64,000 nucleotides of DNA from Candidatus Zixiibacteriota bacterium (GTDB lineage Bacteria; Zixibacteria; MSB-5A5; GN15; FEB-12): positions 4,620 to 68,619 of the forward strand of contig JBFLZR010000009.1 of the NCBI GenBank assembly GCA_040756055.1, read 5' to 3'. The stretch's first letter is position 1, and the number at the start of each line of letters is the position of its first letter. This document shows, one piece after another, positions 56,399 through 61,773 of this stretch. The notes under the pieces were generated by a model that was not told where the DNA came from, made no database searches, and worked only from the letters and a program-made list of their open reading frames with translations. A program made the position numbers and the translations under genes.

Positions 56399-56522
56399 AT
56401 TCCTTTATATTCCTTCCGCTTACAACAGGCCCAAAATTCTAATAAGAAATCGGTCCGCTGGCAATTAAAATCGAAAGGGGGCTTTGGCCCCCTCTGGTCG
56501 TGTCTCAAGTCTACACGGGAAT

Positions 56523-57200
56523 CTATAGCGTCAGAGCATCACCCGGTTTCAAAATGACAACTTCCGCGCCCGATACTTTGTCGGCGAAGCGCTTGGGGTC
56601 CTCGGCGATAATATCCCAAGTATTATAGTGTATTGGGACGACTTTACCGGGTTGAAGGAATTCCACCGCCTTCACGGCGTCATCAATCCCCATGGTGAAG
56701 TTGTCACCGATCGGCAGGAAGGCGAGGTCGATGCGGTTCATCTCACCTATCAACTTCATATCGTAGAACAGGCCTGTATCCCCGGGATGATAGATGGTGG
56801 CGCCGCCGATGGTGACAAGGAAACCGCAGGCAGGGCCGGTATAGCGGGAGGCGTCAGGACCATATCCTCCACCGTGGTGGGCGATGGTCAGTTTCACTCT
56901 TCCGAAGTCAAACTTGTGTGAACCGCCGATGTGCATCGGGTGAATCTGGGCTCCCTGGCTCGAACACAGGTTGGCCAGTTCGAAGTTGGCGATGATAGTA
57001 GCATTGTTGCGTTTGGCAATGGCGATGGCATCCCCGACATGGTCGCCGTGACCGTGCGTCAGCAGGACATAATTCACGTCAACGTCGGCCGCTTTTGTCG
57101 CGGCTTTTGGATTGTCACTTAGAAACGGATCGATAATGAGCTTATGCTTGCCCTCGGTGATGGTCACACATGAATGACCCAGAAATCGTACTTGAGGCAT
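56523..57200 (-). CDS. UPF0173-like metal-dependent hydrolase (MBL fold)
   Basis: FLGHS, IIDPFL, LTHGHGDH, YHPGDT, LPIGDNFTM and VPIHYNT. Confidence 0.9.
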   Translation of the reverse strand: MPQVRFLGHSCVTITEGKHKLIIDPFLSDNPKAATKAADVDVNYVLLTHGHGDHVGDAIAIAKRNNATIIANFELANLCSSQGAQIHPMHIGGSHKFDFGRVKLTIAHHGGGYGPDASRYTGPACGFLVTIGGATIYHPGDTGLFYDMKLIGEMNRIDLAFLPIGDNFTMGIDDAVKAVEFLQPGKVVPIHYNTWDIIAEDPKRFADKVSGAEVVILKPGDALTL

Positions 57201-57344
57201 ATCAAACTCCTTGACTATTTGTTAGCAGATCGATGGTTTAGTAATATTGGGGCTGAAATTAGGCAGGTCAACGATATTTTGGTCCGTATCGGCTCAAATC
57301 AGTTGTTGGCAGTCATGTCTAAGTTATTCGGCGACAACGAGGAG

Positions 57345-58361
57345 CTACTTATTGATTGTCCGAAAGAGGCAGGTCGGGAAGGAAGCGTTGAGGTCGCCGG
57401 TGTGCGCGTATACCGCACCGCGGCAAGCGCCGCGACAGACTTTAAAATAGGGGCATTCGCGGCAGTGACCATCGATAGTCTCACGGGGATAACGGGCTAT
57501 CTCGGTCATCTTGGGATCAGTCAGGATGTCAGCCAGACTTTTCTGTCGGACATTGCCTACGATGAACCGGTCAAAAAGCAGGCTGGTGCACGGGTAAACA
57601 TCGCCCTTGGATGATATGTAGAATGCCTCCGAACCGGCTTTGCATTTGTGGAAATCGTAGGCTGGAGGTAGCGGTCCAAAGGCAACATCGGGCAAGACGC
57701 GGGGATTATCCAAAACGACAAGTTTTTCCATCAGCAGAGCGAGGTCTTCGAGCCGGTCGCCGAAAGACATTTTCCGGCTGATCTCGTCATCCGTCCCCCC
57801 TCCGTGCGGCACGAAACAGCAATATCGGATTGTCTTCACGCCGAGTTCCCTTGCCATATCGACATAGTCAAGCACGTCATCCATGCTGGCGCGGGAGATT
57901 ATCATGGCCAGATAGACGGGAAGTCCGGCATCGAGACTTCTCTTGATGCCATCGATAACCATGTGAAATTCTTTGGCGCTGGCGAGCCTGATATTGTGGT
58001 TTCTTTCGGGGGTGGAGCCATCGAGGCTGATCTGCAGCGAGCTCAGATGCAGTTTCTTGAGGTTTTCGACACGCTTCGCGGTGAGTGGTATGCCATTAGT
58101 CGTTATTCCCGATTTTATGCCTTGATCATAGGCGTACGCGATCAGGTCTTCCAGGTCTTTTCTGATGAAGGGTTCGCCACCCGTCCAACCGATAGTCTCG
58201 ACTTCTATCTGACTCAGGTAGTCTATAATGTGTCGGCATTCGTCGGTCGTAAGTTCGCCGTCGGATACTTTCACCGCCGAACTATAACAGTGCGGACAGG
58301 AAAGGTTGCAGCGGTCAGTTATACCCCATCCGACAGAGCGATATTTTTGTACTTCTGCCAT
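57345..58361 (-). CDS. Radical SAM/SPASM protein (PqqE/NirJ-like scaffold, no N-terminal extension)
   Basis: CNLSCPHC, WTGGEP and ISLDG; SPASM CKAG...YPC...CRECPYFKVCRGAC...C (7 Cys). Confidence 0.93.
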   Translation of the reverse strand: MAEVQKYRSVGWGITDRCNLSCPHCYSSAVKVSDGELTTDECRHIIDYLSQIEVETIGWTGGEPFIRKDLEDLIAYAYDQGIKSGITTNGIPLTAKRVENLKKLHLSSLQISLDGSTPERNHNIRLASAKEFHMVIDGIKRSLDAGLPVYLAMIISRASMDDVLDYVDMARELGVKTIRYCCFVPHGGGTDDEISRKMSFGDRLEDLALLMEKLVVLDNPRVLPDVAFGPLPPAYDFHKCKAGSEAFYISSKGDVYPCTSLLFDRFIVGNVRQKSLADILTDPKMTEIARYPRETIDGHCRECPYFKVCRGACRGAVYAHTGDLNASFPTCLFRTINK

Positions 58362-58395
58362 GGTTTTCCATTCTCAATGATGCAGTACACACAGC

Positions 58396-58431
58396 GGTGA
58401 ATGCGGCAGGAGAAATCCCACCGCATTCACC
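58396..58431. terminator. Stem-loop after precursor peptide B
   Basis: GGTGAATGCGG / CCGCATTCACC perfect 11-bp stem. Confidence 0.7.
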
Positions 58432-58456
58432 TCAAACGGTCTCGGACATCCGATCT

Positions 58457-58609
58457 TTAGTCGTCCGGCGGAAGCATAATTCCAATGATCGGATAGATAA
58501 CCGGCTTGCAGAGCGTTGGACAATATGTCCCGCACAGCAAGGCACAATCCGTTGGGCAGTTGGGGCCGTTGGGGCCTTTACCGCTTGACGGTCCGATGAT
58601 GAATATCAT
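58457..58609 (-). CDS. Putative RiPP precursor peptide B, 50 aa, (CX3)4C
   Basis: Hand-translated MIFIIGPSSGKGPNGPNCPTDCALLCGTYCPTLCKPVIYPIIGIMLPPDD*; RBS GAGGAGG 7 nt upstream; lies between two rSAM/SPASM genes; absent from the ORF track (<60 aa). Confidence 0.85.
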   Translation of the reverse strand: MIFIIGPSSGKGPNGPNCPTDCALLCGTYCPTLCKPVIYPIIGIMLPPDD

Positions 58610-58680
58610 TGCCTCTCCTCCTCATGTGTTTCACGCTGAAGGCACGACGCCGCCATTATTGATTTGAACAATTGATGGCG

Positions 58681-60006
58681 CTATGTAGCCTCCCGGCGTG
58701 TTACATAAAGGTGTCGTAGCTCAAGCAAATCCTGCAGGTTTTCACTGAAGAATTTGCACTTTCCTGACAGACTCTCTGTTTGTTCGCGGATATCGATAGC
58801 GCACCCTCCAGCGCAGACGGGGAGAATAGCGCATGATTTACAGCTGTTACTTTCCAACGGGTCGAGCGTCGTATATTGGAGCATATTCCGATGCTGGAAT
58901 TCATCCACCGGCCTGTAAAAAATGGAATCCACCGACTGATCTACCCTCGCAGACACATCCTGCCAGCATTTAAAGATGTAACCGCTTGGGGCTATTATAA
59001 AAGAACTGTCGGAGTCAGTCGGACATGAGGGCTCGGCAAGTAAATACGGAAAGTCAAACTTCAGACCGCTTCTTCCCGTTACATTTCGATAGATATTCAG
59101 GTGGTTTTTGAGCTCTGAATCACTCTGACGGCATCGACCGATTGCGTCAGCGCAGATCTCTGTTTTAACACGGCTCGGTGCAACGAGAAGGCGCACCCTG
59201 CCGAGTACATCAGCCTGCGCAAGTGAATCAAGAACGTCGTTCATACCCTCGACATCGCTTGCGGCGACATTTATTCTCACAATCGTGTCGAGAATTCCGG
59301 CGACCTGCGAGAGGTTGAAGACTATCCGGTCAAACGAACCGTTCACCTCAGACAATTTCCTTGTTTTATCGTGCGCTTCCCGCGGCCCATTCAAAGTGAC
59401 CTGAGCGGTGTGGACGCCCGCTTCATTGAGGCGCAGCGCCATGGTTTTATCCAAAAGAGCGCCGTTGGTGATGATCGTTGAAGCAAAAAGTTCGATTCCA
59501 TACCCGGCAGCTTTGTCGGCAAGATGTCTCTGGATTCGCTCGATGGTATCGATTTCGAGAAGCGGCTCACCACCGAACCAGGTAACATGTATCTTCTCGG
59601 CTTTCCTGATGGTCTTGTCCAGAAACGAGACCAAAAATTTCTCGACCGGTGGCCGCATCTTCATCTTGTGTTGTCGTCCGTAGCATAAATCGCAGGTTAG
59701 ATTGCAATCGAGGGTAGGAGCAATGGCGAGGGTAAGAAGGTCTTTTCCGAAGCGGCCACGATTATAATACATTTTCTGCTGCGCCAATTCATGGACATCA
59801 TCTTCAATAAGGAATCCGCCATAAACCAACTGCTGTCTGAGAGCGAGGTTATTCTCGGCAGATTCGCCCAGGGGATTCTTTAGAACGGCGGAGACCTGCG
59901 AATAGGAGTTCGGGTCAAGCTCAGCCATGGCACCCGTGACACTGTTAAAGAGGATCCGGTTGCCATTATCGAGATCGGCAAAAATGTTAAACTGGGACGC
60001 TTTCAC
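58681..60006 (-). CDS. Radical SAM/SPASM peptide maturase with N-terminal RRE-like extension
   Basis: About 85-aa N-terminal extension (SQFNIF...ILFNSVTGAMAEL), LAIAPTLDCNLTCDLC, WFGGEPLL; SPASM C...FKCW...CKSCAILPVCAGGC...C. Confidence 0.92.
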   Translation of the reverse strand: MKASQFNIFADLDNGNRILFNSVTGAMAELDPNSYSQVSAVLKNPLGESAENNLALRQQLVYGGFLIEDDVHELAQQKMYYNRGRFGKDLLTLAIAPTLDCNLTCDLCYGRQHKMKMRPPVEKFLVSFLDKTIRKAEKIHVTWFGGEPLLEIDTIERIQRHLADKAAGYGIELFASTIITNGALLDKTMALRLNEAGVHTAQVTLNGPREAHDKTRKLSEVNGSFDRIVFNLSQVAGILDTIVRINVAASDVEGMNDVLDSLAQADVLGRVRLLVAPSRVKTEICADAIGRCRQSDSELKNHLNIYRNVTGRSGLKFDFPYLLAEPSCPTDSDSSFIIAPSGYIFKCWQDVSARVDQSVDSIFYRPVDEFQHRNMLQYTTLDPLESNSCKSCAILPVCAGGCAIDIREQTESLSGKCKFFSENLQDLLELRHLYVTRREAT

Positions 60007-60101
60007 GAGACTTTTTGTTCCTGTGAGGGACTTGTCAAGAGAAGCCGAGGTGCTGCTTCTATCGCCGTCAAGTTAAGTTGTTCCAAATAGGATACTTAAC
60101 T

Positions 60102-60129
60102 AATATAGCTTTTTTGTCCCGACTGTCAA
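60102..60129 (-). promoter_or_regulatory. Sigma70-like promoter for the rSAM maturase
   Basis: Minus strand TTGACA-N16-TATATT. Confidence 0.6.
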
Positions 60130-60218
60130 TATTGAAGTTTAGAGCCGAATCATCGCGACCCTTCACGTCTAGCGATCCGGCGCTGTGTTACCGAATGTCC
60201 TACAGGATGACCAAAGTG

Positions 60219-60286
60219 AAACACGGTCGAGAAGTTACGACCGTGTTTTTGCCTGCGCGTAAAATCGAAATCGCTCGATTTTTTTT
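60219..60286. terminator. Two hairpins following precursor peptide A
   Basis: AAACACGGTCG/CGACCGTGTTT (60219-60248) and AAAATCGA/TCGATTTT (60261-60282). Confidence 0.65.
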
Positions 60287-60287
60287 G

Positions 60288-60383
60288 TCATTCGGGCGGC
60301 TGGATAACAAACAGCCTTATGCAATCGAACGGGCAGGGTTTGTTCGGTCCCTTACCGCTGATGGGCTCAATGATAAACAGCAT
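60288..60383 (-). CDS. Putative RiPP precursor peptide A, 31 aa
   Basis: Hand-translated MLFIIEPISGKGPNKPCPFDCIRLFVIQPPE*; RBS GAGGAGG 7 nt upstream; paralogous to peptide B. Confidence 0.82.
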   Translation of the reverse strand: MLFIIEPISGKGPNKPCPFDCIRLFVIQPPE

Positions 60384-60687
60384 TAGCCTTCCTCCTCAAT
60401 GCGTTAGGATATATTCTGTTAGCACGAGCGCATAATCTGTTGATCTGCAAAGTCGGTTACGTGCTGAACAGATTCTAATGATACTTTACATCACCAATAG
60501 AGTCCTAGAGTCATCTAATCTGTCCTTCTGTAGGGGGCCTGCAGGAAGAGGCAACGTACTATATGCTACCAACACACAGTCAAGCCGCTCTAATAAGTCA
60601 GTATTTAAATAAGTCTTCCTGGAGCTACATGTCAATATTGATATTCACGAGCGGTAATTTCAATTAAGTATCCTGAGGAGCCAACCG

Positions 60688-61773
60688 CTAAGCGATGATC
60701 CCACCGCCCAGAAGAACATCGCCGTCGTAGAAAACCACTGACTGGCCGGGGGTTATGGCGCGCTGCTTCCGGTCGAAGACGACTTTCACCTGGCGGTCCG
60801 ACAAGGGAATCAAAGTTGCCGGAGCGGCCTTGTGCTGATAACGAATTTTTACTTCGACGCGAAGTTCCTCTGCCGGTGGGGCAATGCTTACCCAGTTGAC
60901 ATTCGCTGCCGTCAATTCGCGTTCGTAAAGCCCACTATCATCGCCGACTAAGATGCGGTTACTATCGACGTCAATCTTCTGGACATACAGCGGGGTCGGG
61001 TAGGCAACCCCGAGCCCCCGGCGCTGGCCAATAGTGTAGAAAGGTGTCCCCTTGTGTTTGCCCAGCACGGTTCCGTCTTCATGAACAATATCTCCCGGGG
61101 CATGCTCAATACCTTCTTTGGCATCATACTCGGTCAAGAAGCGGTGATAGTCGTCGTCGGCAACAAAGCATATCTCGCGGGATTCGACTTTGTTGGCTGT
61201 GCGGAGGTTATACTTTGACGCAATCTCACGGACCTGGGATTTCAGCATTCCACCGAGCGGCATAAGCGTTTTGGACAGAGCCTCCTGACTGATTCCCCAC
61301 AGCACATATGACTGATCGCGTGATTCATCGACGCCTTTGCGAATCCGGTAGCGGCCGCTCTCACTTTGTTCGACGAAGGAGTAGTGGCCGGTGGCGATAA
61401 AGTCGCACCCTACCTGCTTTGCCTTGCGAAGAAACTCGTTCCATTTTACTTCGGTGTTACAACGCACGCACGGATTCGGAGTTCTGCCGGCCCGGTATTC
61501 ATTTACGAAATCCTTGATTACTTTTTCCCGGAACTGCTCGGACATATTCAGGACATAGAACGGGGCGCCAATTGAATCACAGACCATGCGGCAATCGGTA
61601 ATAGAATCGATGGTACAGCACCGACCGTCCTTGTAAATATCGCCGCCCACATCGACATAGTCCCAGAGCTTCATGTGGGCCCCAACGACATCGAAGCCCT
61701 GTTCCTTCAGAATCAGGGCCGCTACGGACGAATCCACTCCACCGGACATTGCCACCAGTACTTTTTCACTCAT
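60688..61773 (-). CDS. mnmA: tRNA-specific 2-thiouridylase
   Basis: AMSGGVDSS, TPNPCVRCN, ATGHY, DQSYVL and RAITPGQSVVFY. Confidence 0.96.
   Translation of the reverse strand: MSEKVLVAMSGGVDSSVAALILKEQGFDVVGAHMKLWDYVDVGGDIYKDGRCCTIDSITDCRMVCDSIGAPFYVLNMSEQFREKVIKDFVNEYRAGRTPNPCVRCNTEVKWNEFLRKAKQVGCDFIATGHYSFVEQSESGRYRIRKGVDESRDQSYVLWGISQEALSKTLMPLGGMLKSQVREIASKYNLRTANKVESREICFVADDDYHRFLTEYDAKEGIEHAPGDIVHEDGTVLGKHKGTPFYTIGQRRGLGVAYPTPLYVQKIDVDSNRILVGDDSGLYERELTAANVNWVSIAPPAEELRVEVKIRYQHKAAPATLIPLSDRQVKVVFDRKQRAITPGQSVVFYDGDVLLGGGIIA

Follow-up and report, generated by a model that had tools for sequence, protein, structure and literature searches.

What do two small open reading frames (ORFs) encode when they alternate, on one strand, with two genes for radical S-adenosylmethionine (rSAM) enzymes carrying a SPASM domain? 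This question is raised by positions 57345-60383 of a 64,000-nucleotide stretch of DNA from Candidatus Zixiibacteriota bacterium (contig JBFLZR010000009.1 of assembly GCA_040756055.1), the whole of which is called the window below. An earlier note, made from the sequence alone, had taken the locus for a cluster of two precursors and two maturases producing a ribosomally made peptide that is modified post-translationally (RiPP), and our analysis bears this out, since small ORFs (27-50 amino acids) adjoin orthologous enzyme pairs in approximately 30 other loci of the phylum. With a probability of about 0.7, we regard the locus as a self-contained RiPP cassette of an undescribed Zixibacteria family, in which the first enzyme (rSAM1), guided by a RiPP recognition element (RRE), would install Cys thioethers, and the second one (rSAM2) would add a second modification. 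To our knowledge, the Zixibacteria, which are uncultured and abundant in sediments, have essentially no characterised natural products.

The locus consists of four co-oriented minus-strand genes in the order pepB, rSAM1, pepA, rSAM2 (ORF list; Table 1), in agreement with the alternation described earlier. Both peptides display the features that had been attributed to them, namely MxFIIxPxSGKGPN, CPxDC and a hydrophobic-Pro-Pro-acidic end, and both genes are preceded by the reported GAGGAGG ribosome-binding site (RBS). The argument from synonymous codons stands as well: in the first 14 codons, pepA and pepB share five identical codons, six are synonymous (TTC/TTT, ATC/ATT, CCG/CCC, AAA/AAG, GGC/GGA, CCC/CCG) and three change the residue, and purifying selection is seen in orthologs elsewhere. 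When the 3.3 Mb genome was scanned in six frames, GKGPN-type peptides were found at these two sites only, and the likeness of pepA and pepB is far in excess of chance. Compared to its 49-amino-acid ortholog (L001/L005), pepA differs in 25 of 47 codons, 17 of them synonymously and eight non-synonymously, and pepB is separated from its 38-amino-acid ortholog (L003) by eight synonymous and four non-synonymous changes over 24 codons; for random single-base changes in ORFs of this kind, the expected synonymous share is approximately 22%. For five 30-amino-acid orthologs from more distant genomes, nucleotide identity is 76-95% within the ORF and 20-59% over the next 90 nucleotides, and synonymous changes are never outnumbered and usually dominant (e.g., 13 versus 5). 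Based on these sequence comparisons, the peptide orthologs are under purifying selection, and we read pepA and pepB as genuine precursor genes that are presumably translated. Neither Pfam nor NCBIfam had a significant match to pepA, pepB or any of the 18 related peptides scanned.

The closest homologs of rSAM1 bear Zixibacteria names in their source records, and similar peptides accompany them. Locus L001 (rSAM1 62% identical) shows the same mnmA, rSAM1, rSAM2, metallo-beta-lactamase (MBL)-fold and AsmA synteny as the window, with the 49-amino-acid pepA ortholog beginning at the rSAM1 stop codon; L002 (44%) has this synteny too, with a 39-amino-acid peptide (MLFIVLPDRSTAGSGPGCAVKTGPCPKKVISILPPPAIW) at the rSAM1 stop codon; and L003 (63%), a short contig on which nothing but rSAM1, rSAM2 and the beginning of the MBL-fold gene is visible, has the 38-amino-acid pepB ortholog at that same place. 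ORFs of the same framework behind GGAGG-type RBSs are present in all of L001-L003, in most of L004-L033 and in L054, usually between the two enzyme genes, 3-9 nucleotides past the rSAM1 stop codon and with a GGAGGTG-type RBS, and upstream in a few loci. We gathered 31 distinct peptide sequences, which in alignment with pepA and pepB follow the framework M-x-[FIY]-[ILV]-x-x-P, 5-8 variable residues, [KG]P-C-P-(0-4)-C and a short hydrophobic stretch that ends with Pro-Pro. The form seen most often is MKFIExPxxxxxKPCPCYKxLFLILPPW, and the only core residues kept universally besides Pro are at least two Cys. Peptide conservation next to rSAM homologs, whose absence the earlier note had set down in advance as speaking against its proposal, is therefore found. 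A profile of the peptides retrieved 13 true members only, already gene-called, among 1.84 billion representative proteins.

Some relatives depart from the usual arrangement. In G137, a genome of the same genus (L006/L034), five tandem precursors lie between rSAM1 and rSAM2 (L034, 8400-10000); their cores have two, three or five Cys, and one of the start codons is apparently ACG. In L003 (SPBD01000328.1, 1359-1613), the pepB-type gene right after rSAM1 is followed by a leaderless pepA-type core with a TTG start and no RBS, which looks like a scar left by recombination or replacement between the two types of precursor. The match to the rSAM1 ortholog in L019 (G006:C4:302605-303921) contains one in-frame TGA.

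We then delimited the cassette in a phylum sample of 201 genomes from 108 genera, with rSAM1-like genes in 75 genomes. All 30 best loci of sufficient length have an rSAM2 ortholog (40-80% identity) after rSAM1; L006, an apparent exception with no rSAM2 within its flank, was settled by the longer L034 from the same genome, where rSAM2 is present. When all ORFs of 23 extended loci were clustered, only rSAM1, rSAM2 and the intervening peptide were common to them, which shows a minimal unit of three genes: a precursor, an RRE-bearing maturase and an RRE-less second maturase. Neither a recurring protease or transporter, nor a stand-alone RRE of the PqqD/MftB type, nor pathway partners of PqqE, MftC or AhbD are conserved nearby in these 23 loci, and the earlier remark that no protease or exporter is adjacent holds at the window locus, while a separate cluster of the same genome (type 2, described at the end) does carry an ABC exporter. 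The flanks, mnmA, cysteine desulfurase and BamA on the one hand and the MBL-fold and AsmA genes on the other, are shared within the genus only, and the MBL-fold hydrolase (56523-57200) as well as mnmA and the cysteine desulfurase were rejected as cassette members on that ground.

The cassette is accessory and patchy, because 36 of the 201 genomes and 18 of the 108 genera have an rSAM2 ortholog (E <= 1e-70), which is missing from one genome of the very same genus. In a maximum-likelihood tree, the rSAM1 sequences of the kind found here (type 1) form one clade (support 100/99), inside which the window group (with L003, L005, L054, L002 and L006) is a long branch, and the nearest homologs from outside the phylum (Planctomycetes, Acidobacteria and other contigs) fall outside this clade. 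Candidates for the cassette beyond the phylum (P0009, P0011, P0012, P0015 and P0020) were rejected as different clusters, which contain ATP-grasp, ABC and HlyD genes but lack an rSAM2 ortholog. A degenerate DNA pattern encoding PCPCYK-x5-(L/I)PP matched ten contigs among 185,579 species genomes. Seven of the ten belong to genomes of our phylum sample, an eighth bears a Zixibacteria title, and the last two are labelled Ignavibacteria. In all, six of the ten (L063, L066-L070) are titled 'uncultured Ignavibacteria' by their submitters, yet GTDB places the genomes of L063, L069 and L070 (G023:C29, G018:C3 and G075:C18) in the window's phylum. The submitter labels thus overstate the taxonomic spread of the pattern, and the family appears, judging from the sequences surveyed, to be confined to the window's phylum, with the window locus as one long-branch subclade and no isolated oddity.

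Both enzymes are rSAM/SPASM proteins, as had been stated, and pass the thresholds of the radical SAM and SPASM domains. For rSAM1, these are PF04055 (48.8 bits, cutoff 29.5) and the TIGR04085 SPASM model (43.2 bits, cutoff 27). Its canonical CX3CX2C radical SAM cluster (C101/C105/C108) is invariant in 75 homologs, as are six of the SPASM Cys, the seventh being kept in at least 90% of them. In its AlphaFold2 model (mean predicted local distance difference test score, pLDDT, 86.4), residues 7-62 form three strands and then three helices with pLDDT 92-97, which is the RRE topology. Over the whole length, Foldseek places CteB first (5wgg, template modelling (TM) score 0.70), with TigE (8vpo, TM 0.66), SuiB, anSME and ChlB as other neighbours. 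The RRE that had been assigned to rSAM1 is therefore supported by the topology of a confidently modelled N-terminal domain (pLDDT > 90) together with the whole-length CteB fold match; Pfam PqqD has no match on rSAM1 at E <= 1, and the support for the RRE is structural. Against curated families, rSAM1 scores best with TIGR04463 (235.8 bits, cutoff 525), and reaches 225.3 bits with Clo7bot TIGR04334 (cutoff 600), 184 with CefB (cutoff 600), 112.2 with the PapB ranthipeptide model NF047865 (cutoff 340), 73.4 with SCIFF TIGR03974 (cutoff 425) and, despite the i+4 spacing of the pepA Cys (C18, C22, C26, C30, C34), 45.8 with CXXX-repeat TIGR04115 (cutoff 350). For all five of its top curated families, the NCBIfam name is that of a maturase acting on Cys-containing or Cys-rich peptides. 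A strong match to a characterised family, which by the earlier note would have removed the novelty, was not seen: all curated maturase families, Clo7bot and CXXX-repeat included, stay below cutoff.

The second enzyme, rSAM2, passes PF04055 with 88.7 bits (cutoff 29.5) and PF13186 with 51.3 (cutoff 21.5). It begins straight with the radical SAM barrel, with a canonical CX3CX2C (C18/C22/C25), and its invariant columns include seven SPASM Cys plus C181. The AlphaFold2 model (pLDDT 94.7) has no additional N-terminal domain, and the nearest structures by Foldseek are PqqE (6c8v), SkfB (6efn) and SuiB (TM 0.77). Across the family, rSAM2 is better conserved than rSAM1 (40-55% versus 33-38% identity).

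The peptides thus have in common a conserved N-terminus (MxFIIxP...) that is very short, a core that contains Cys and a hydrophobic tail with Pro-Pro, and they are always partnered with an RRE-bearing rSAM1 and an RRE-less rSAM2. We propose that the RRE of rSAM1 would bind the conserved N-terminal leader (the MLFIIEPISGKGPN peptide) as an added beta-strand, and that rSAM1 would then form intramolecular Cys thioethers of the sactionine or ranthionine type, with a maximum of two in pepB (CPFDC) and of five in pepA (CxxxC ladder). We infer this chemistry by analogy with CteB and CrpC; an S-C(alpha) or S-C(beta/gamma) thioether in the mature peptide is what defines the sactipeptide and ranthipeptide classes. 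Without a recognition domain, rSAM2 would add a second modification to the same peptide, such as one more crosslink or an alteration of the conserved Tyr/hydrophobic-Pro-Pro region. The hairpins that follow the precursor ORFs would raise the amount of precursor mRNA relative to enzyme mRNA, and the product would be a small hydrophobic crosslinked peptide, an accessory trait, released without a protease or exporter of the cassette. A bolder version, which we entertain only tentatively, would make this a new RiPP class, with recognition through approximately seven N-terminal residues, an obligatory RRE-less rSAM2, the best-conserved component of the cassette, performing an undescribed modification, and a membrane-associated peptide that retains its leader. 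In that case the target of rSAM2 could be, for instance, the near-invariant Cys-Pro-Cys-Tyr or the hydrophobic-Pro-Pro segment, and the peptide would play a physiological role in Zixibacteria and not that of an antibiotic.

Several points weigh against a thioether-forming cassette. TigE, a close structural neighbour of rSAM1, makes cyclopropyl residues and not thioethers. The commonest core of the family is merely KPCPCYK, with few obvious acceptor residues, and the cassette contains no leader peptidase or exporter. Moreover, rSAM1 scores less than half the cutoff of every curated maturase family, so that its function is not transferable by family membership. Support from RNA is also poor: two short contigs from two RNA-labelled public runs cover pepA (58466-58757 and 58441-58628), at a depth of about 2, strand-less and with possible DNA carry-over, and they are a hint of expression, not proof.

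The locus might instead encode a genuine RiPP whose main chemistry is other than thioether formation, one or both enzymes giving C-C or C-O crosslinks (Tyr/Trp cyclophane), epimerisation or cyclopropyl residues, with the Cys acting as ligands or forming disulfides. The structural neighbours of the enzymes include TigE, SuiB, ChlB and EpeE, most cores (CPCYK, ...ILPPW) have a Tyr or Trp near the Cys pair, and every thioether-family model is below cutoff for rSAM1. We consider this unlikely, yet worth keeping in view, as the Cys are the residues that the cores universally keep besides Pro, and the five top families of rSAM1 are maturases of Cys peptides, one of them shown to make ranthionines.

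The resemblances of rSAM2 lead in another direction, toward a peptide that serves as a sacrificial precursor, from which a small redox cofactor or another intracellular factor is derived, as pyrroloquinoline quinone (PQQ) is from PqqA and mycofactocin from MftA. Indeed, rSAM2 aligns over its full length to the MftC, PqqE and AhbD/NirJ models and its fold resembles that of PqqE, the precursors are very short, an exporter is lacking, and within the genus the cassette has a fixed site among housekeeping genes (mnmA, MBL-fold hydrolase, AsmA). Such a role is nonetheless improbable. The best curated models for rSAM2 (AhbD, MftC, StsB, NirJ and PqqE) are all below cutoff, and well so for AhbD TIGR04545 (168.8 bits, cutoff 500), mycofactocin MftC TIGR03962 (152.7 bits, cutoff 265) and PqqE TIGR02109 (121.8 bits, cutoff 381); no conserved peptidase, oxidase or dehydrogenase lies nearby; the distribution is patchy even inside the genus; and variable cores with up to five-fold tandem precursors are like a natural-product RiPP and not like a cofactor. 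Finally, that the small ORFs occur by chance while the substrate of the enzymes is distant or not a peptide is rejected because of the synonymous excess and the drop in identity beyond the ORF end, and is effectively refuted when the strong RBS, the fixed position and the framework shared across approximately 30 genomes are added, even if the peptide ORFs are missing from most gene-call tables of these contigs (L001-L003) and match no curated peptide model.

The cassette clearly belongs among the sacti/ranthipeptide-like rSAM/SPASM RiPPs, and it is covered by no curated family, solved structure or paper that we found. Clo7bot systems (TIGR04334/TIGR04333) resemble it in having short Cys-rich precursors, sometimes in tandem, beside an RRE-rSAM-SPASM maturase, and residues 2-432 of rSAM1 align to positions 1-433 of the 440 of the Clo7bot model, to which the type-2 enzyme of the same genome is nearer than rSAM1. 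They differ from the Zixibacteria cassette in that the latter has an obligatory second rSAM/SPASM enzyme. TIGR04333 (cutoff 31 bits) did not match pepA or pepB at E <= 1, and among the relatives at E <= 10 it picked up one L006 peptide only, at a non-significant 9 bits (E = 1.2). In our literature search, Clo7bot or TIGR04334 was named in no paper and TIGR04463 in a single one, and no bench characterisation of Clo7bot was found. SCIFF clusters are compact, with one rSAM enzyme and no dedicated protease or exporter, and the SCIFF enzyme CteB is the solved structure nearest to rSAM1; PapB links Cys to Asp in CxxxD motifs, which the CPxDC of pepA and pepB recalls. Both systems differ from the Zixibacteria cassette, which has unrelated precursors and two enzymes. 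PqqE, MftC and SkfB share with rSAM2 the RRE-less rSAM/SPASM core and a similar size, but rSAM2 remains beneath every family cutoff.

Among the members of TIGR04463, CrpC from Methanococcus voltae has been shown to install ranthionine thioethers on a Cys-rich substrate, and has an RRE, radical SAM and SPASM build like that of rSAM1, with three [4Fe-4S] clusters (PMC13692751). Its substrate CrpA is described as a large protein, in which a 47-residue region for recognition lies at the N-terminus and a Cys motif of 17 residues is repeated ten times (PMC13692751), whereas the Zixibacteria substrates are peptides of 27-50 amino acids with a conserved N-terminal motif of approximately 7-14 residues. 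The Crp cluster description consulted names CrpA, CrpB and CrpC only, and no second rSAM enzyme (PMC13692751). Our literature search retrieved no paper joining Zixibacteria and SPASM, the papers on Zixibacteria and RiPPs were general surveys, and those retrieved for FlmE, OhkG and CefB were irrelevant.

The cassette is one among many orphan rSAM RiPP families and unsurprising in kind, but it is a good bench lead. Approximately 3 kb long, with two enzymes, short precursors and no other conserved gene, it could be synthesised directly and tested in Escherichia coli. Its roughly 30 natural variants represent a substrate series, from the two-Cys KPCPCYK to the five-Cys pepA ladder, for dissecting each enzyme, and the cassette would yield named models for peptide genes that are now missed by gene callers.

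Table 1. Coordinates of the cassette features in the window.
Feature	Position	Strand	Description
pepB RBS	60391..60397	-	GAGGAGG, 7 nucleotides 5' of ATG
pepB	60288..60383	-	31-amino-acid precursor peptide, two Cys, MLFIIEPISGKGPNKPCPFDCIRLFVIQPPE
Stem-loop pair	60219..60282	-	directly 3' of pepB (RNA fold)
Promoter-like element	60102..60129	-	TTGACA-16-TATATT in the pepB/rSAM1 gap, 11/12 to consensus (consensus scan, pattern match only)
rSAM1	58681..60006	-	441 amino acids, GTG start; RRE, radical SAM core and SPASM
rSAM1 RRE	59743..60006	-	residues about 1-88
pepA RBS	58617..58623	-	GAGGAGG, 7 nucleotides 5' of ATG
pepA	58457..58609	-	50-amino-acid precursor peptide, five Cys, MIFIIGPSSGKGPNGPNCPTDCALLCGTYCPTLCKPVIYPIIGIMLPPDD
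Stem-loop	58396..58431	-	16-bp, GC-rich, in the pepA/rSAM2 gap (RNA fold)
rSAM2	57345..58361	-	338 amino acids; radical SAM/SPASM without RRE

Stem-loops follow both precursor genes (Table 1). In the second of the two behind pepB, which is terminator-like, an 11-bp stem (about 60219-60248) precedes UUUCACUUU. RNA folding gave -29.4 kcal/mol for 60195-60290 (z = -3.74) and -42.2 kcal/mol for 58355-58460 (z = -4.47), and in both cases none of 200 shuffles was equally stable. A terminator consensus scan left these hairpins unflagged, and they were detected by the folding instead; comparable stems of 11-16 bp are found 3' of most orthologous peptide ORFs. This fits a layout common among RiPPs, where the message for the precursor is either stabilised or terminated in part. 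With Rfam, no RNA family was matched at E <= 0.1 within 56400-60800. Most relatives have the peptide start no more than a few bases from the rSAM1 stop codon (overlapping it in L001/L005), and the GGAGG RBS is embedded in the last rSAM1 codons (...REEAT*), an arrangement that suggests translational coupling. The pepA gene of the window differs from these relatives, as it lies 71 nucleotides downstream of rSAM1 and has its own RBS.

Outside the window, the same genome carries the type-2 cluster mentioned above (G000, contig C6, 113963-118479). It consists of four genes, encoding a peptide (MIFLIDPTMVGKKCPSYEPPVCSPKYIPLYGIDPILPPE), a Clo7bot-like RRE-rSAM/SPASM enzyme of 447 amino acids (373 bits, cutoff 600), a second rSAM/SPASM enzyme of 359 amino acids and the ABC exporter of 585 amino acids. 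Of 16 other genomes tested in the phylum, 15 contain the type-2 enzyme pair, and 12 of them also yielded a matching peptide; these peptides have the form MIYLIDP...CxxxCxxxC...KPLYGI. The core of pepA, with its four CxxxC steps and KPVIYPIIGI tail, is closer to the type-2 cores than to the type-1 form KPCPCYK..LFLILPP, although the enzymes beside pepA are of type 1. This resemblance may reflect an exchange of cores between the type-1 and type-2 systems.

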